NCBI GenBank assembly: GCA_015523685.1 | Contig: WAJW01000185.1 | Coordinates: 1-38,027, forward strand | Source: Archaeoglobaceae archaeon | GTDB taxonomy: Archaea; Halobacteriota; Archaeoglobi; Archaeoglobales; JdFR-42 | Length of the DNA stretch: 38,027 nucleotides | Reading direction: 5' to 3' | Part shown: positions 23,676 to 31,508 of the stretch, piece after piece | Layout: every line of letters begins with the position of its first letter | How positions within the stretch are numbered: the first letter of the stretch is position 1 | Notes under the pieces: model-generated | The model's database searches: none | What the model was told of the DNA's origin: nothing | Seen by the model: the letters and a program-made list of their open reading frames with translations, nothing else | Position numbers and translations under genes: made by a program

Positions 23676-23688
23676 TGATAATTTATCA
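23676..23688. promoter_or_regulatory. perfect 13-bp palindrome TGATAA-T-TTATCA between TATA box and start codon (candidate operator)
   Basis: Read directly. Half-sites are at 23676-23681 and 23683-23688. The last A is the first base of the ATG. Confidence 0.4.
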
Positions 23689-24167
23689 TGATGAAAGAGC
23701 ATTCTGTAGAGATTGTTGTCAATGGTGAGAGACATCACCTTACCGTGGGAAGTGAGATGACACTTCTCGAGGTTCTCAGAGACAGACTTGGTTTAAAGGG
23801 TGTAAAGGAGGGTTGCAGTAAGGGAGAGTGCGGAGCCTGCACAGTTCTTGTGGATGGCAGACCGGTTAACTCCTGTCTTCTTCTTGCAGTGGAAGCGGAT
23901 GGAAAAGAGATAATAACGATAGAGGGGGTGGAGAGGGACGGCCAGCTAAACCCCATTCAGGAGGAATTCATAGAACATGGAGCGGTGCAGTGTGGTTTCT
24001 GTACACCCGGGATGATAATATCAGCAAAATACCTTATTGAAAATAATCCAGATCCTTCAGAGGAAGAAATCCGGGAGGCAATATCGGGTAATCTGTGCAG
24101 ATGCACGGGATATGTAAGGATAATTTCTGCGATTAAATCGGCTGTAGATAAGTACTCCATGAGGTGA
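23688..24167 (+). CDS. molybdenum hydroxylase (xanthine dehydrogenase family) small subunit, two [2Fe-2S] clusters
   Basis: Plant-type cluster CSKGECGACTV...C and the second cluster QCGFCTPGMI...CRCTGY. About 159 aa. Confidence 0.92.
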   Translation: MMKEHSVEIVVNGERHHLTVGSEMTLLEVLRDRLGLKGVKEGCSKGECGACTVLVDGRPVNSCLLLAVEADGKEIITIEGVERDGQLNPIQEEFIEHGAVQCGFCTPGMIISAKYLIENNPDPSEEEIREAISGNLCRCTGYVRIISAIKSAVDKYSMR

Positions 24168-24173
24168 TAATGC

Positions 24174-26549
24174 TTGCAGGAAATTCTCAGGAAAAAAAAG
24201 ACAGAATACAGGTATGTGGGCAAACCTGTCAGAAGAGTGGATGGTTACAAGAAGGTAACAGGAAGAGCCGTTTATACCGTGGATGTGGATCTTCCCGGGA
24301 TGCTTCACGGAAAAATCCTGAGAAGCCCCCATCCCCATGCCATCATAAAAAGCATAGATACCTCAAAGGCAGAAAGACTTCCGGGAGTGAAGGCGATTAT
24401 AACAGGAAAGGATACAGAAGGTGTCCGCTTTGGATTTGTGGAAACACCCCATATGCCTGCGGACATGCCTCCTCTCGCAGAGGACAGGGTGAGATATGTT
24501 GGTGAGGCCGTTGCTGCGGTTGCAGCGACTTCAGAAAAGGTTGCGGTTAAGGCCATTAACCTCATAGAGGTGGAATATGAGCCTCTTAAAGCTGTTTTTC
24601 ATCCAGAAGAGGCCATGAAACCCGAGGCCCCGGCAATCCATGACGTCATATATCCTTCCGGTCGATCTTTCTGGCAGGAGTGGGGCGTGGAGAGGGATAG
24701 CACACCCCAGAAAGTCGAGAGGAACATCGCAAGCACCCTCAAACTTGAAATAGGAGATGTGGAGGAGGGTTTTGGCAATGCCGATCATGTAAAAGAGGGG
24801 CGATTTGAGACGAATGTAACCGCACATGGGGCTCTCGAACCCCATGGAGCGGTTGCAAGATACTCCGAGGGGAGGCTGGATGTCTGGCTATCCCATATGG
24901 GTCCGTATATGAAAAGATACTGGCTTGCCAGAACAATGGGGCTTCCTGAGAGTCATGTCAGGGTTCGTCCCGCATTTGTGGGAGGTGCCTTCGGAGGGAA
25001 GATTGACCTTTTTGATTATGAATACATAGCAAGCCACCTCTCCAGATTGACCGGCAGACCCGTTAAGATAGTTCTCACACGGCGGGAGGTGTTTCAGGCA
25101 ACCAGGCTTAGACATCCGATGATTTTCTACATTAAGACCGGTGTAAAAAAGGATGGAAGGATAACCGCTATGGATATTAAAGCAATCGATGACACCGGAG
25201 CTTACAGAGGTACCGGACCGGTGGTTGTCTATCTCGCCCACGCTTTTTCAATTCCGATATACAGAATTCCAAATCTGAGGTATACGGGTTATGCTGTTTA
25301 CACAAACAATCCTGTCAGAGTGGCGATGAGGGGGCATGGAGCGCCTCAGGCAAGGTTTGCTGTTGAACAGCAGATCGATGAAATCGCAGAAGAGGCAGGA
25401 CTTGATCCCTATGAAATCAGGATGATAAATGCAAGGGAAAGGGGAGATGTTCTGCCCAATGGCGACGTGCTTAATAGCTGTGGTCTTAAGGAGGCCCTCA
25501 CAAGAGCGGTTGAAGATGGCAAATTCCTCCAGAAGTACGGGAAACACAGGGGGAAAGGAAGAGGAGTCGGAATCGGACTGACGAGCATGTTCAGCGGTGC
25601 CCAGTTCTATCCGTTCGGTGCAACAGGAGTTGTTCTCCTTCATGATGATGGAGGAGCCACTGTTTTTACGGGAGCGATAGAATTTGGACAGGGTTCCGAT
25701 ACCATGATGTGCCAGATTGTTGCTGAAGAGCTGGGAATCGACATGGAGAGGGTGAGCATTCTCTCAGGAGATTCCGAACTCTGCCCCATCGCCCTTGATA
25801 ACTGGTTGAGCGGAGGCACATTCGTGAATGGAAGGGCGGTACAGCTCGCAGCCATTGATGCAAGAAATAAACTGTTCGAGTACGCTGCAGAATTGCTGGG
25901 AGTTAGCAGAGACGAGCTTCAGGCGGAAGACAATGTGATATATTCCGCTGACAACCCTTCGAAGAGGATACCTCATGAAAAGGTGGTAAAGTACGCAATT
26001 CACAGAAACAGAGGTCAGCAGATTGTCGGAGTTGGTCATGCAACTCCTGTCGAAGGAGCGTACTGGTATCCGAGCCTTACCACCGGTAAAGGCAGGTTCA
26101 CCGGGGCATATTCCTTCTCCGCGACCTTTGCGGAAGTTGAGGTGGATTTTGAGACGGGAGTGGTTAAGGTGGTCAGAATAATAAACGCCCACGACTGTGG
26201 ATATCCCATCAATCCCGTACTCGTTGAGGGGCAGGCGGAAGGGCAGGGCTACATGGGAATGGGTCAGGTACTTTTTGAGGAGGTTATCGAGGAAAAGGGT
26301 ACAATCCTCAATCCCAACTTTCTGGACTATCTCATGCCCACCTCCATTGACGTACCCGAAATGAAGACCATACACATCGAGACACACGACCCCAACGGTC
26401 CTTTCGGTGGAAAAGAGGTTGGAGAGGGAGTTATTGCGGGTGTTGTTTCAGCGATAGCCAACGCAATCTACGATGCAACCGGAGTTCGTTTCAGAAAACT
26501 CCCGATTCTACCTTCAGATATTCTTGATGCCCTGGAGGGGAGAGAATGA
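24174..26549 (+). CDS. molybdenum hydroxylase large (molybdopterin-binding) subunit
   Basis: YVGKPVRRVDGYKKVTGRAVYTVD N-terminus. GGAFGGK motif. C-terminal GGKEVGEG containing the family catalytic Glu position. TTG start 7 nt after a GAGGTGA SD. Confidence 0.9.
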   Translation: MQEILRKKKTEYRYVGKPVRRVDGYKKVTGRAVYTVDVDLPGMLHGKILRSPHPHAIIKSIDTSKAERLPGVKAIITGKDTEGVRFGFVETPHMPADMPPLAEDRVRYVGEAVAAVAATSEKVAVKAINLIEVEYEPLKAVFHPEEAMKPEAPAIHDVIYPSGRSFWQEWGVERDSTPQKVERNIASTLKLEIGDVEEGFGNADHVKEGRFETNVTAHGALEPHGAVARYSEGRLDVWLSHMGPYMKRYWLARTMGLPESHVRVRPAFVGGAFGGKIDLFDYEYIASHLSRLTGRPVKIVLTRREVFQATRLRHPMIFYIKTGVKKDGRITAMDIKAIDDTGAYRGTGPVVVYLAHAFSIPIYRIPNLRYTGYAVYTNNPVRVAMRGHGAPQARFAVEQQIDEIAEEAGLDPYEIRMINARERGDVLPNGDVLNSCGLKEALTRAVEDGKFLQKYGKHRGKGRGVGIGLTSMFSGAQFYPFGATGVVLLHDDGGATVFTGAIEFGQGSDTMMCQIVAEELGIDMERVSILSGDSELCPIALDNWLSGGTFVNGRAVQLAAIDARNKLFEYAAELLGVSRDELQAEDNVIYSADNPSKRIPHEKVVKYAIHRNRGQQIVGVGHATPVEGAYWYPSLTTGKGRFTGAYSFSATFAEVEVDFETGVVKVVRIINAHDCGYPINPVLVEGQAEGQGYMGMGQVLFEEVIEEKGTILNPNFLDYLMPTSIDVPEMKTIHIETHDPNGPFGGKEVGEGVIAGVVSAIANAIYDATGVRFRKLPILPSDILDALEGRE

Positions 26550-27502
26550 TCATACCATTCGAGTTTGAATACTTCAGGCCTTCAAGTATCAGGGAGGCGG
26601 TTGATCTCCTCTCAGAGGAGGATTCCATACCCATTGGAGGAGGCACGGATCTCGTTCCGATGTTCAAGGATGCTCTTATAAAACCCGGGAAGGTTGTTAG
26701 CCTGAAAAATATTCCTGAAACTCACGGAATTGAATTTGATGGAGAGAGACTTTCAATCGGTTCAGCGGTAACCCTTACAGAAATTGCTGAGAACGGTGTA
26801 ATCAGGGAACATTTCAACTCAATAGCGACAACCGCAAGGAATGTTGCCTCACCTCAGATCCGGAATCTGGGAACCATAGGGGGAAATTTATGCCAGAATC
26901 TGAGATGCCCGTACTACAGGCTCGGTTATCCGTGCCATAAAAATGGAGGCAAGAAATGCTTTGCCATTGGAGGAGAGAGTAGATGGCACTCCATTTTTGG
27001 AGGGAAAAAATGCTTTGCTGTAAACCCTTCAGATATGGCAACAATACTCATTGCCCATGGAGCCGTCCTTGAGATAGCGGGCAGAAATGACACAATTCCT
27101 TTAGAGGAGCTCTATGAAGGCCCAGGAGAACTCTCATTAAAAAAAGGGGAAATAATAACCCGAATTTATCTGGAAAGGAGAGAGAATTCGAAAGCCATCT
27201 TTATGAAGTTCAGACTAAGGGGATCAATTGACTTTGCCCTTGTCAGCACGGGTATAAGGATTGACTTTGATGGGAATGAGATTGAAGATGCATCCATAAT
27301 TCTGGGCAGTGTGTATGGCACACCATACAGGGCAATAAATTCGGAGGAGTTTCTGAAAGGAAATACTCTGACGGACACAGCGATTACAAAAGCCTCGGAA
27401 CTGGCTGTTGAAGGGGCGAAACCCCTCAAAAAGAATAAATACAAGGTTAAAATTGCAAAAACTCTCGTTAAGAGGGGGCTCGAAACTCTCAGAGGTGGAT
27501 GA
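26546..27502 (+). CDS. molybdenum hydroxylase FAD-binding medium subunit with Cys-rich (HcrB/PaoB-type, putative [4Fe-4S]) insertion
   Basis: GGGTDLVP and GTIGGNL FAD motifs, then CQNLRCPYYRLGYPCHKNGGKKCFAIGGESRWHSIFGGKKCFAVNPSD. ATGA overlap with the large-subunit stop. Confidence 0.88.
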   Translation: MIIPFEFEYFRPSSIREAVDLLSEEDSIPIGGGTDLVPMFKDALIKPGKVVSLKNIPETHGIEFDGERLSIGSAVTLTEIAENGVIREHFNSIATTARNVASPQIRNLGTIGGNLCQNLRCPYYRLGYPCHKNGGKKCFAIGGESRWHSIFGGKKCFAVNPSDMATILIAHGAVLEIAGRNDTIPLEELYEGPGELSLKKGEIITRIYLERRENSKAIFMKFRLRGSIDFALVSTGIRIDFDGNEIEDASIILGSVYGTPYRAINSEEFLKGNTLTDTAITKASELAVEGAKPLKKNKYKVKIAKTLVKRGLETLRGG

Positions 27503-27503
27503 G

Positions 27504-29075
27504 ATGAAAATAGACTCTTTCATACCCTACGAACTTCAGCCTACCCTCGTTTTTCCCCTTCCTGAAATTCAGTATCCTCCTCAAATAAATGTATGCAATG
27601 AACTGGTTGACAGAAATGTGGAGAGGGGTCTGGGTGATAAACCTGCGGTCATATCGGATGAGGGAGTAATAACCTACAGGGAACTGCAGAATGAGATTTC
27701 ACGGATTTCCGGGGGATTAATTGACGCTGGAATAGGGGAAGGAGATAGGGTCCTTATCAGGGGGATGAATCGCCCTGAAACCCTCATATCCATTCTGGCG
27801 GTAATGAGATGTGGGGCTATAGCTGTACCAACGATGCATCTCCTCAGAGAGGGTGAGCTTGAAAAAATAGCAAAGGACTGTGAGCCGAAAATGGCCATTG
27901 TTCAGAGCGGTCTGGAGAGGGAGATTGAAAGAATCGATTACGAATTCAGAGAAATAATCCAATTTCCTGAATCAGAAAGACACTCGTCTCTGAAAGACCT
28001 GAGAGGTGAAAAAACCAGGGCGGTTTCAACGGAGAGGGATGATATTGCCCTGATGCTCTACACCTCGGGAACAACCGGAACTCCAAAGGGTGTGATACAT
28101 ACCCATGAATCAATACTGAGTGCTGCAGACACCTTCAGCAGATATGCCTTTTCTCCCGATGAAAGGGACATATTCACGGGACACCCATCAATGGCCTTTG
28201 CCTACTGTTTTGCCGGACTCATCGTTTACCCTCTCCGGGCTGGAGCTTCGACCGCCCCCATGGAAGAATTCCACCCCGACAGAACCCTTGACATCATAGA
28301 GGATTATCAGGCAACTATATTTTTTACCGTTCCAACAGCCATCAATCTAATCCTCCAGAATGAAACGGATGAGCACAGCCTTGAGAGTCTGAGAGCAGTT
28401 TCGAGTGCCGGAGAGAAACTCCCTCCTGCAATCCTGAGAAAATGGATGGAGAGATTCAATGTGCCCATAGTCGAAAACATGGGAACCTCGGAAATCCTCG
28501 CGAGTTTCATCTCGAACAGGGTGGATGAAATAAAGGAGGGATCATGTGGCAGACCTGTTCCGGGTTATGAAGTGAGAATAATGGACGATAATATGAGAGA
28601 GGTGAAGAGAGGAGAGATCGGGTACATGTTTGTGAGAGGTCCCACAGGCGCAAGATACTGGAAGAGAAATGAAGAACAGAAAAAGTACGTGAAACGTGGA
28701 TGGACATATACCGGTGATCTGGCATGGATGGATGAGGATGGCCACATATACTACGTTGCAAGGGTGGACGATGTCATAATATCTTCGGGATACAGAATCA
28801 CATCCCAGGAAGTGGAGAATATCCTGCTTGAACATCCAGCGGTTAAGGAAGTTGCTGTTACGGGAGTTAAGGACGAGAAGAGGGGTCAGGTTCCCAAGGC
28901 GTTTGTTGTTCTTAAAGATGAAGTTGCCCCGGAAGAATCACTGAAAGAAGAGCTGAAAAACTTTGCTAAATCGAAGCTCGCTCCATATAAATATCCGAGA
29001 CAGATCGAGTTTTTAAAGGAATTACCCAAAACCCCAACGGGAAAGATAAAAAGGAGAGAGCTAAGGAACAGATGA
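27504..29075 (+). CDS. aryl-CoA ligase (benzoate / 4-hydroxybenzoate-CoA ligase-like AMP-dependent synthetase)
   Basis: N-terminus NVCNELVDRNVERGLGDKPAV and AMP motif LMLYTSGTTGTPKGVIHTH. The C-terminus KLAPYKYPRQIEFLKELPKTPTGKIKRRELR resembles aromatic-acid CoA ligases. Start at 27504, 1 nt after the upstream stop. The ORF-track start 27408 lies inside the FAD subunit gene. Confidence 0.8.
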   Translation: MKIDSFIPYELQPTLVFPLPEIQYPPQINVCNELVDRNVERGLGDKPAVISDEGVITYRELQNEISRISGGLIDAGIGEGDRVLIRGMNRPETLISILAVMRCGAIAVPTMHLLREGELEKIAKDCEPKMAIVQSGLEREIERIDYEFREIIQFPESERHSSLKDLRGEKTRAVSTERDDIALMLYTSGTTGTPKGVIHTHESILSAADTFSRYAFSPDERDIFTGHPSMAFAYCFAGLIVYPLRAGASTAPMEEFHPDRTLDIIEDYQATIFFTVPTAINLILQNETDEHSLESLRAVSSAGEKLPPAILRKWMERFNVPIVENMGTSEILASFISNRVDEIKEGSCGRPVPGYEVRIMDDNMREVKRGEIGYMFVRGPTGARYWKRNEEQKKYVKRGWTYTGDLAWMDEDGHIYYVARVDDVIISSGYRITSQEVENILLEHPAVKEVAVTGVKDEKRGQVPKAFVVLKDEVAPEESLKEELKNFAKSKLAPYKYPRQIEFLKELPKTPTGKIKRRELRNR

Positions 29076-29641
29076 TCAGGGCGGTCATACTTGCCTCCGG
29101 GAAATCAGAACGATTCGGCGGTGTGAAGCTTCTTGAAAGATTTCGTGGAAGACCTCTCATAGAGATATGCCTCAATTCATTTTTGAAAACAGGAGTAAAA
29201 GGAGTCGTTGTAACACACAACCCTGCAATCTCGGATATATCCACAAAGATGGGTTTCAGAACAGTTCCTGGAGGGGTATCGCTGAGTGAAAGTCTCAAAT
29301 CAGGTTTAAAATCAGTTGACTGGAGTGAGGGGATACTCATCCATCTCGCCGACATACCCTTTGTAAGACCGGAGACAATTAAGAATCTGATTGATGCATT
29401 CTCCAGCAGTCCTGATAAAATTTTGATCCCCCGCTACAACGGTGCTCCCGGACATCCGAGGATATTTCCTCCAGAATTGATTCCAGAATTTTTCAGTATA
29501 ACAGGTGACAGGGGAGGAAGAGATATAGTGGACAGACATTCAGAAAAGGTGAGAAGATTTGACTGCAATGATCCGGGTGTGATTTACGATATAGATACGA
29601 GAGAACAGCTGGAGAGGGCGTACAGCCTGTTCAGGATATGA
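29072..29641 (+). CDS. mocA: MobA-like NTP transferase, molybdenum cofactor cytidylyltransferase type
   Basis: AVILASGKSERFGG.KLL, LADIPFV, GAPGHPRIFP, GDRGGRDIV and DIDTREQLE match the MocA pattern. ATGA overlap with the ligase stop. Confidence 0.75.
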   Translation: MIRAVILASGKSERFGGVKLLERFRGRPLIEICLNSFLKTGVKGVVVTHNPAISDISTKMGFRTVPGGVSLSESLKSGLKSVDWSEGILIHLADIPFVRPETIKNLIDAFSSSPDKILIPRYNGAPGHPRIFPPELIPEFFSITGDRGGRDIVDRHSEKVRRFDCNDPGVIYDIDTREQLERAYSLFRI

Positions 29642-29643
29642 TT

Positions 29644-30456
29644 TCAGTACAGGATTCCTGCCCCTCTCCCCAGATACATCACGGCCTCAAGGACGCCTCC
29701 CGCAACCGCCCTTGATTTATCGGAGATGGTGAAACAGTACTCCCTGTTGCCTCTCGGATCGACATCACCGATCTTCATCCCCCTTCTCACCCTGATTCCC
29801 GGTCTGATCAGACCTCTCAAGACTCCATCAATCTCTGATACGACATCAATTCCGGAAACCCTGCCGACAACATCTCCCTTCTTCACATGATCCCCTATTT
29901 TTCTTTCAGATCTGAAGATTCCATCTGCTGGAGCTCTGAGCACTCTTTCAACTGTGTATCCTCCGATATTACCCGGAATACCCGTGTTCTCCTCTGCCGA
30001 GCCTTCAAGAATCACCCTCCCGAGATTATGACCCCTGTTGGTTTCTATCACAGCATGGACATCCTTTCCCGCTCTGAAACCCGGTCCAAGAGCAATCACA
30101 ACGGGAGCATCGTTTATTGCTGTTCCCGTGTTCCTCTTTGCCATTATAGCATCAACCACCACTTCAGGATTCAGAATTTTTACAGTACTTCCGGAAGGAT
30201 CGGCAATTACGGGAATACCACCCCTCTCCCACACATTCCTGAATTCACTCACTTCCGAAACACGATATGCAGTAATCCCCTCCACCTCCTTCATCCCATC
30301 GTAAATCGCTTCACTGAAGGATACCTCTCTGCGAATGGAGGTTGGATACGGGGCTTCTGTAATACACACCCTGAAACCCGCTCTTGCAAGCCTCCACGCA
30401 ACCCCCGTTCCCAGATCTCCACCACCCTTTATCAGGACTCTTATATCCCCGATCAT
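29644..30456 (-). CDS. YqeB/EF2563-like selenium-dependent molybdenum hydroxylase system accessory protein (family call from memory)
   Basis: IRVLIKGGGDLGTGVAWRLARAGFRV...IRREVSFSEAIYDG...RGHNLGRVILEGSAEENTGIPGNIGGYTVERVLRAPADGIF...GDVDPRG...ISDKSRAVAGGVLEAV. Start at 30456. The 77 upstream codons of the ORF-track call are low-complexity and overlap xdhC. Confidence 0.6.
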   Translation of the reverse strand: MIGDIRVLIKGGGDLGTGVAWRLARAGFRVCITEAPYPTSIRREVSFSEAIYDGMKEVEGITAYRVSEVSEFRNVWERGGIPVIADPSGSTVKILNPEVVVDAIMAKRNTGTAINDAPVVIALGPGFRAGKDVHAVIETNRGHNLGRVILEGSAEENTGIPGNIGGYTVERVLRAPADGIFRSERKIGDHVKKGDVVGRVSGIDVVSEIDGVLRGLIRPGIRVRRGMKIGDVDPRGNREYCFTISDKSRAVAGGVLEAVMYLGRGAGILY

Positions 30457-30466
30457 TGAACAAGAG

Positions 30467-30488
30467 TTAAATATCCCATCAATATAAA
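30467..30488. promoter_or_regulatory. back-to-back TATA-like boxes in the 44-nt divergent gap (candidate crossed leaderless promoters)
   Basis: TTAAATAT (30467-30474) is centred about 30 nt from the xdhC ATG (30501). AATATAAA (30481-30488, TTTATATT on the minus strand) is centred about 28 nt from the yqeB-like ATG (30456). Confidence 0.4.
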
Positions 30489-30500
30489 CTCTCTCCCGTA

Positions 30501-31508
30501 ATGATATACCAGGAGCTTGAGAGATTTGTGGATAAAAAAATACCGTTTGCACTTGTAGCTGTGATTGAAAAGAGGGGCTCAGGACCCGTTTCAATGGATT
30601 CAAGGATGGCTGTAACCTTTGATGATTCAATTGGCACGGTTGGTGGAGGGGTTCTGGAGGCAAGGGCAAAAGAGAGGGCAGTTTCATGCCTTGAGAATGG
30701 CAGTTCGGAGGTCATCCAGTTCGTTCTCAGAGAAGATGGAAATGTGGATCTCATATGCGGAGGGGAGGTGAAGTTGTTCATCAAACCTTTCCTTCCTGAA
30801 AATCCGGATTATAGACTGATGGAGAAGGCCATCAGATTCTCAAAACAGGGTACTGATGTCTGTATGGGATTTGTGATCTCTCCCTTTGAGGGAGTTTATC
30901 TCCACACCGGGAGTACTGGAGAGGATCTGGGTATTCCCGAAGGTATCAAAGAAAGAATTAAGGAGTTGTGTGAGCAAACTGCAATTGAAGGGAAGAGCAG
31001 ATTTTTTAAAAATGAATTTTCCGCATTCATTGAGTATATATCCAGAAAGCCCATGCTTGTCCTTTTTGGGGGAGGGCATGTCAGTTATTATCTTTCAAAA
31101 ATTGCCTCCCTGAATGGCTTTTCCATCACGGTGATTGACGACAGGCCCGAATATGCGAACAGGGAGAGGTTTCCCGAAGCTGAAAGGGTTATTGCAGGCG
31201 ATTATGGGGAGGTGACCGATAGTCTCACACTGGATGGCAATACATACATTGTCATACAGACGAGAGGTCATGAAATTGATAAAGAAGTCCTGAAAAGAGT
31301 TATCAATTCAAATGCAGTGTATATAAGTATGATAGGGAGCAGAAGAAAGGTCAACCTGATTTTCAGGAGGCTGAGAGAGGAGGGCATCCCTGAAGATTTG
31401 CTAAGGAGGGTCAGAGCTCCGGTTGGGCTCGATATAGGATCTGAAACACCACCGGAAATAGCCGTCAGCATAATGGCCCAGATAATTATGGAAAGACGGA
31501 AAAAATAA
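30501..31508 (+). CDS. xdhC: XdhC/CoxI family molybdenum cofactor insertion chaperone
   Basis: N-terminal XdhC_CoxI domain (ALVAVIEKRGSGPVSMDSRMAV...VGGGVLEA). C-terminal Rossmann domain (VLFGGGHVSYYL...IVIQTRGHEIDKEVL...MIGSRRK...VRAPVGLDIGSETPPEIAVSI). Confidence 0.82.
   Translation: MIYQELERFVDKKIPFALVAVIEKRGSGPVSMDSRMAVTFDDSIGTVGGGVLEARAKERAVSCLENGSSEVIQFVLREDGNVDLICGGEVKLFIKPFLPENPDYRLMEKAIRFSKQGTDVCMGFVISPFEGVYLHTGSTGEDLGIPEGIKERIKELCEQTAIEGKSRFFKNEFSAFIEYISRKPMLVLFGGGHVSYYLSKIASLNGFSITVIDDRPEYANRERFPEAERVIAGDYGEVTDSLTLDGNTYIVIQTRGHEIDKEVLKRVINSNAVYISMIGSRRKVNLIFRRLREEGIPEDLLRRVRAPVGLDIGSETPPEIAVSIMAQIIMERRKK

Follow-up and report, generated by a model that had tools for sequence, protein, structure and literature searches.

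A YqeB-like gene beside the genes for a molybdenum hydroxylase raises the question of whether that enzyme carries selenium. The labile selenium ligand on molybdenum (Mo) is the least understood biological route for this element, and YqeB is the sole genetically supported factor for it (PMC11448449). The gene considered here is found in a contig from an Archaeoglobaceae archaeon (WAJW01000185.1, assembly GCA_015523685.1), the whole 38,027 nt of which was analyzed and is referred to below as the window. Its product is a genuine YqeB-family member, encoded in an island of Mo hydroxylase and cofactor genes that is conserved in three genomes of this archaeal family. The reading preferred here, considered slightly better than an even bet, is that YqeB, stand-alone and functional, together with the MocA and XdhC proteins encoded next to it forms a maturation module for the adjacent hydroxylase, which resembles 4-hydroxybenzoyl-CoA reductase (4-HBCR), and that this enzyme is selenium-dependent. 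The more detailed version of this, an aryl-CoA-acting 4-HBCR-type enzyme with Mo=Se replacing Mo=S, matured by YqeB without YqeC in a selenocysteine-decoding archaeal family, is more tentative, and is put somewhat short of even.

A YqeB gene in a conserved molybdenum hydroxylase island

Direct translation gives a single intact frame of 270 residues and a stop codon (Table 1); the original prediction had this frame right, but its length of 271 aa is the codon count. In an NCBIfam search the protein matches TIGR03309 (YqeB) at 389.8 bits (cut-off 220; E = 5.5e-117), over model positions 1-255 of 256, and a whole-genome search with the same model scores it at 389.5 bits. This full-length match bears out the YqeB/EF2563 family call first made from six motifs (GGGDLGTGVAWRLARAGF, IRREVSFSEAIYDG, RGHNLGRVI, IPGNIGGYTVERVLRAPADGIF, GDVDPRG, and SDKSRAVAGGVLEAV), all of which are found letter for letter in the translation. 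The earlier description did not give the strand: yqeB is read from the minus strand and all of its neighbors from the plus strand.

The longest mechanically called open reading frame (ORF) extends to an upstream ATG at 30687, giving 347 aa. The 270-aa start is preferred because the TIGR03309 alignment begins at residue 7 of the shorter form, because yqeB of a congener is also called at 270 aa, and because the 44-bp spacer to the divergently transcribed xdhC carries AT-rich TATA-like boxes on both strands. Judging from these boxes, the spacer may be a bidirectional archaeal promoter.

As originally proposed, yqeB is placed between the structural operon and xdhC: the hydroxylase genes, an aryl-CoA ligase gene, and mocA occupy 23688-29641, with mocA converging on yqeB across a 2-nt gap. 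This is the location expected for TIGR03309 members, a Mo hydroxylase locus whose accessory genes are of the XdhC and MocA/YgfJ types, and it is retained in two further genomes, one from a sister genus (G001; YqeB 65% and alpha subunit 78% identical to those of the window) and one from a congener (GCA_054013995.1; YqeB 82% identical). Genome-wide searches of the source assembly (G000) found YqeB, XdhC, and MocA in single copy.

Table 1. Coordinates of the features discussed, by position in the window.
Feature	Position	Strand	Evidence or comment
[2Fe-2S] gamma subunit of Mo hydroxylase	23688..24167	+	PF01799, PF00111
Mo-binding alpha subunit, 4-HBCR-like, presumed YqeB client	24174..26549	+	TIGR03194 is the best NCBIfam model
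FAD beta subunit with HcrB-type Cys-rich insertion	26546..27502	+	PF00941, PF03450
Benzoate-CoA-ligase-family aryl-CoA ligase	27408..29075	+	TIGR02262 355.7 bits (cut-off 375); PF00501, PF13193
mocA/ygfJ-like molybdenum cofactor cytidylyltransferase	29072..29641	+	PF12804 111 bits; TIGR03310 127.9 bits (under the cut-off of 186)
yqeB, stand-alone TIGR03309 (YqeB/EF2563) family protein	29644..30456	-	270 aa
Divergent yqeB/xdhC spacer, 44 bp	30457..30500		TGAACAAGAGTTAAATATCCCATCAATATAAACTCTCTCCCGTA, read directly; AT-rich TATA-like boxes
xdhC-family Mo-cofactor insertion/maturation chaperone	30501..31508	+	PF02625, PF13478

The adjacent hydroxylase, which would be the client of this module, is 4-HBCR-like, and all three of its subunits score below the corresponding equivalog cut-offs (alpha, TIGR03194, 644.6 vs. 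994.55 bits; beta, TIGR03195, 168.2 vs. 404.55; gamma, TIGR03193, 186 vs. 257.8). Several gamma-subunit models match the gamma protein at 170-210 bits, again under their cut-offs; among beta-subunit models, only TIGR03195 aligns as a single stretch. The best solved structure for the alpha subunit is 1RM6 chain A, the Thauera 4-HBCR alpha subunit (419.5 bits, full length), with CoxL second at 289 bits. Read directly, the beta subunit has a Cys-rich insertion after its GGNL motif (GGNLCQNLRCPYYRLGYPCHKNGGKKCF...KKCF, with cysteines spaced CQNLRC...C...C...C), the feature that in Thauera HcrB provides an extra [4Fe-4S] site. Closer relatives of the alpha subunit (51-59% identical) belong to an uncharacterized, mostly bacterial clade.

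Selenium use by the source lineage

The source organism uses selenium, by way of a selenocysteine (Sec) machinery. Its assembly (1.75 Mb in 227 contigs, 95% complete) encodes a tRNA-Sec (C10:17377-17463; Rfam 76.5 bits, ARAGORN anticodon TCA, 9/4 fold), a SepSecS gene cut in two by contig ends (C50:6260-6967 and C209:5647-6315), and a homolog of a fusion between seryl-tRNA(Sec) kinase (PSTK) and SelB (C50:4125-6230). The fusion is kept in both genera with 58% identity; the sister-genus protein has 706 aa (L097:11199-13319), with TIGR03574 matching residues 7-237 and TIGR00475 residues 272-561. A codon-usage screen found a UGSC-family selenoprotein gene (C200:2112-2756, minus strand) in which an in-frame TGA stands for the U of the motif; it scores 135 bits against NF041046 (cut-off 125). 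A screen for Sec/Cys paralog pairs yielded only antisense-frame artefacts, and the FdhA-like Mo/W enzymes of this assembly contain no internal TGA.

This lineage decodes Sec with a complete system in which PSTK and SelB are fused, and it has at least one selenoprotein gene with an in-frame TGA; this is a more surprising result than that for yqeB. A 2026 review confines archaeal Sec use to the Methanococcales, Methanopyrales, and Asgard archaea (PMC13188914), so the source lineage may be one more group of archaeal Sec users, as yet unreported. No mention of a PSTK/SelB fusion was found in a study of the Asgard selenoproteome (PMC11227280). No SelD was found in 59 genomes of a sister family in the same order. 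Since the Sec machinery is active, a selenium donor should be available to a YqeB pathway as well.

Possible roles for YqeB

The neighboring genes suggest how such a pathway might run. MocA would make the cytosine-dinucleotide form of the Mo cofactor, and XdhC would hold the cofactor and insert it into the apo-enzyme. YqeB would act at the XdhC step, such that the terminal labile Mo ligand would be selenium rather than sulfur, with selenophosphate made by SelD as the selenium source. The adjacent enzyme is a reasonable, if unproven, candidate for selenium dependence of this kind, and the same mocA-yqeB-xdhC module possibly also serves another Mo hydroxylase of this genome (see below).

Work on other systems is consistent with this scheme. 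In Clostridioides difficile, a yqeB deletion mutant resembles a selD deletion mutant in its growth on xanthine and urate (PMC11448449). In enzymological work, a Mo hydroxylase was inactive when purified from a strain mutated in selD (bioRxiv 10.1101/2025.04.24.650524). The YqeB family is large (739 clusters at 50% identity, E <= 1e-30), and in some of its members YqeB is fused to XdhC (at the N or C terminus), to YqeC, to YqeC and MocA, or to a MeaB-like G3E GTPase (P0252, P0250, P0263, P0268, P0284, P0276, and P0249 among public sequences), so that it is physically tied to the same partners.

Several observations weigh against a selenium cofactor here, the first being the fate of selD. Neither SelD nor YqeC is encoded in the window, as the original prediction had noted, and a family search of the assembly (95% complete, 227 contigs) found no SelD above cut-off. 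A genome wholly lacking selD was named in the original prediction as grounds for giving it up; taken formally, selD is indeed absent from this assembly, and the refutation is not accepted here because the absence is very probably an assembly gap. Three lines of evidence lead to this view. The rest of the Sec pathway is encoded in the genome, as is a selenoprotein gene with a TGA, and each of these depends on selenophosphate. Both relatives that have the island, the sister genus and the congener, also have SelD: the sister genome (99% complete) encodes a true one (NF010705 404 bits, N-terminal motif HGCSCK), and that of the congener, whose genome has 76-88% nucleotide identity to the source assembly, is 72% identical to it. 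Finally, the congener gene sits in a V4R-selD-OsmC slot (L105 9180-11681) adjoining CbiZ; none of these three genes is assembled in the source genome, and its CbiZ-bearing contig (C129) stops 26 bp past CbiZ.

Other places where selD might have been found were tried and rejected. The four SelD-like matches in the assembly are ThiL, PurM, methanogenesis marker 2, and an unclassified AIR-synthase-like protein. The best SelD-like match (322 aa, C127:4583-5548, minus strand) scores 110 bits as HypE, 93 as ThiL, and 83 as SelD, all under cut-offs; this AIR-synthase-family protein lacks the N-terminal Cys/Lys motif of SelD and has a paralog in the sister genome (C3:148175-148909). Similar sub-threshold matches recur in many bacterial YqeB genomes. 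A tblastn search of the assembly with the sister-genus and congener SelD found only 27%-identical AIR-synthase paralogs. The contig syntenic with the sister-genus selD site (C193) is occupied there by other genes, and metagenome contigs with a 95%-identical copy of the congener SelD are only 78% identical to the source assembly, so they are not the missing piece.

The selD gene of the sister genus adjoins genes for Sec synthesis (in the order SelD, a 228-aa ORF, a DMT transporter, PSTK/SelB, and SepSecS), and its presence can be explained without a selenium cofactor. A further point against the selenium reading is the absence of YqeC (TIGR03172), which was found neither in this assembly nor in the sister genome, while all six other archaeal YqeB genomes and 48 of the 50 bacterial ones encode it. 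The published signature of SelD, YqeB, and YqeC is therefore incomplete in this lineage, and only YqeB and YqeC jointly have been accepted as a signature of the selenium-cofactor trait (PMC5029168). Against this, deletion of yqeC in C. difficile has no evident phenotype (PMC11448449), so the lack of YqeC is weak evidence against a selenium role. The sequence of the active site or Mo subunit gives no help, as it cannot separate selenium from sulfur enzymes (bioRxiv 10.1101/2025.04.24.650524). Among five bacterial loci encoding the closest alpha relatives (52-55% identical), inspected over +/-10 kb, YqeB was found within 10 kb in just one. The Thauera 4-HBCR is not known to need selenium or YqeB, and a literature search found nothing tying 4-HBCR to labile selenium.

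The distribution of YqeB was followed at three levels. Among 61 genomes of the order, YqeB was found in two (the source and sister genomes), SelD in one (the sister genome), and the Mo hydroxylase only in the same two; since the three travel together, order-level data cannot separate them. In the phylum, 8 of 401 sampled genomes have YqeB, and seven of the eight have SelD; in the six from outside this family, YqeB is part of a 533-687-aa frame with SelD and YqeC as immediate neighbors. Of 50 bacterial genomes with the nearest YqeB homologs, 47 have SelD (48 of 51 with the sister genome included).

The first alternative to a selenium-dependent enzyme is that YqeB is a selenium-independent helper in Mo-cofactor maturation, acting in cofactor handling by XdhC or in sulfuration, with an ordinary sulfido or oxo ligand on the enzyme and a link to SelD that comes from anaerobic lifestyle or from the Sec trait. 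This is less likely than the selenium-dependent reading. It would account for the lack of YqeC in both genomes searched, for the lack of SelD in the source assembly and its position in a Sec gene cluster in the sister genus, and for a Thauera enzyme with no recognized selenium requirement; YqeB or YqeC alone may also serve processes unrelated to selenium (PMC5029168). The bacterial co-occurrence does little to oppose it: most of the SelD genes in these genomes contain an in-frame TGA, marking their hosts as Sec users, and the association of YqeB with SelD consequently discriminates weakly. What it does not explain so easily is that Haft and Self found TIGR03309 exclusively in selD-positive genomes, against a background of about 30% (PMC2276186), that selD is the immediate neighbor of yqeB in all six of the other archaeal genomes, or that within the order YqeB is confined to the one selenium-using family. 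The C. difficile phenotypes, where loss of yqeB resembles loss of selD and loss of yqeC is silent, also argue for the selenium-dependent role.

As a second alternative, YqeB might mature a selenium cofactor for a different client, its position in the island reflecting the shared mocA-yqeB-xdhC set. The source assembly does encode another Mo hydroxylase of the xanthine-oxidase family, with gamma, alpha, and beta subunits split over contig ends (C41:3-2445 and C16:73-1534), with an alpha subunit 33-39% identical to that of the window. No accessory genes of its own were seen, and with one XdhC, one MocA, and one YqeB in this genome it probably shares the single set; four of the five sampled bacterial alpha relatives, moreover, lack YqeB in cis. 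This alternative is nevertheless improbable. The yqeB-mocA-xdhC genes adjoin a 4-HBCR-like operon in all three archaeal genomes, and a whole-genome search of the sister genome with the window alpha subunit (E <= 1e-30) found the island ortholog only, and no second enzyme. A shared module would in any case serve both enzymes and not exclude its neighbor.

The remaining alternative, that yqeB is a decaying, laterally acquired passenger without current function, would fit the nesting of the three YqeB proteins of this family among bacterial sequences (see below) and the absence of the partner YqeC, and it is very improbable: the frame is intact, all residues invariant in the family are present, the TIGR03309 score is the second-highest of the eight archaeal matches in the 401-genome sample, and orthologs only 65-82% identical keep their full length and position across two genera, a combination that points to purifying selection on yqeB.

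Returning to the selenium-dependent reading, the lineage offers a minimal natural set of one YqeB, one XdhC, one MocA, and no YqeC, with a defined client operon in cis, convenient for reconstitution and for asking whether YqeC is dispensable. If the reading is right, the aryl-CoA branch would gain its first selenium-dependent member, and YqeB with XdhC, MocA, and SelD would suffice to build the selenium cofactor. The known selenium-dependent hydroxylases would then no longer be limited to purine and nicotinate substrates but would include the anaerobic breakdown of aromatic acids, which trace selenium could limit in sediments and hot springs. If on the other hand the client holds no selenium, YqeB alone is an unreliable selenium marker, which matters because NCBI labels every TIGR03309 member a [quoted passage not shown]

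Known systems, predicted fold, and other features of the island

An archaeal YqeB has been known since 2008, on Haloarcula marismortui pNG700 (PMC2276186, PMC2432076), and the occurrence of one next to a Mo enzyme is accordingly less new than was first implied. The Haloarcula protein (pNG7241) is an XdhC-YqeB fusion from an orphan-selD cluster, likewise an archaeal TIGR03309 member tied to Mo hydroxylases. Its arrangement, with YqeC, SelD, and YqeB adjacent, is that of the six other YqeB genomes of the phylum. In the present lineage, by contrast, YqeB is unfused and yqeC is absent, and the selD genes of the relatives are far from yqeB, beside Sec genes, unlike the orphan selD of the Haloarcula type. 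In a maximum-likelihood tree, the three YqeB proteins of this family form one clade (support 96/88), nested among Thermodesulfobacteriota and Myxococcota sequences on a weak backbone, while the other archaeal YqeB clade is separate (100/100); this suggests that the two archaeal groups acquired the gene independently. The idea that the island was transferred as a whole from the bacteria whose YqeB is nearest was considered and rejected: the adjacent alpha subunits, where there are any, are only 28-44% identical to that of the window. Two bacterial YqeB loci (L048 and L050) hold hydroxylases with the HcrB-type Cys loop.

Enterococcus faecalis EF2563 and C. difficile YqeB (CD3478) belong to the same family and are likewise stand-alone proteins of about 260-280 aa, encoded among genes for Mo hydroxylases and their cofactors. 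Those systems have yqeC and purine-type hydroxylase clients, whereas the present case is archaeal and lacks yqeC, and its associated enzymes are a 4-HBCR-like hydroxylase and an aryl-CoA ligase. In Thauera aromatica 4-HBCR (HcrCAB; 1RM6, 1SB3), similarities to the window enzyme include the structure best matching the alpha subunit, the Cys-rich beta loop, and the accompanying CoA ligase; the sub-cut-off scores of all three window subunits set the two apart. The closest functional analog of YqeB, and its proposed partner, is XdhC, encoded next door, of the type that in Rhodobacter capsulatus is a chaperone overseeing Mo-cofactor sulfuration and insertion. In other organisms XdhC is often fused to YqeB. 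It works on the sulfido cofactor. No sequence kinship with YqeB was detectable: a profile comparison of YqeB with the neighboring XdhC gave a non-significant 2.4% probability, and the idea that they are paralogs was dropped.

A Pfam search with YqeB found no family, and a PDB sequence search found no relative even at E <= 1. The AlphaFold2 model (predicted local distance difference test 92.1, predicted template modeling score 0.88) has an N-terminal Rossmann-like domain with a GxGxxG motif, followed by a region rich in beta strands. Foldseek returned only local matches to this model (to Rossmann-type proteins, to the barrel domains of aspartoacylase-like enzymes, and, over 71 columns, to a propionyl-CoA carboxylase chain); no PDB entry covers the whole protein and all template modeling scores are <= 0.28, so the mechanism of YqeB is not readable from any structural relative. 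The 71-column match may be read as involving a biotin-carrier (BCCP)-type domain of the carboxylase chain, in agreement with the resemblance of YqeB to AccB remarked on by Johnstone and Self (PMC11448449). Across a diverse alignment, G13, P38, G124, E138, G146, G179, G211, G215, and K228 never vary; the window protein was one of the aligned rows, and hence has every one of them. Cys241, considered as a selenium-relay residue, is invariant in close homologs and fell below the 90% conservation threshold in the more diverse alignment, so such a role is not supported.

The YqeB fusion to a MeaB-like G3E GTPase mentioned above (P0252; TIGR00750 304 bits) was unexpected, and is a possible clue that metal or cofactor delivery in some lineages includes a GTP-dependent step.

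The XdhC of the window scores under cut-off with two NCBIfam models (NF045664, 274 bits vs. 350; TIGR02964, 120.7 vs. 161.6). The longest ORF for the CoA ligase begins at a TTG within the 3' end of the FAD-subunit gene, overlapping it over 27408-27502. The congener protein is called at 524 aa (L109), and the true start is probably near 27500, translationally coupled to the stop codon of the beta subunit. The mocA and yqeB genes of the sister genus are separated by an additional ORF of 227 aa (L098:8513-9196), for which membrane-spanning segments are predicted; it matches no NCBIfam family, is not YqeC, and is without a counterpart in the source assembly. Upstream of the hydroxylase operon the window encodes a Fae-Hps fusion and an archaeal-type triose-phosphate isomerase, which mark the host as an archaeon; beyond xdhC it encodes a Liv-type ABC importer.

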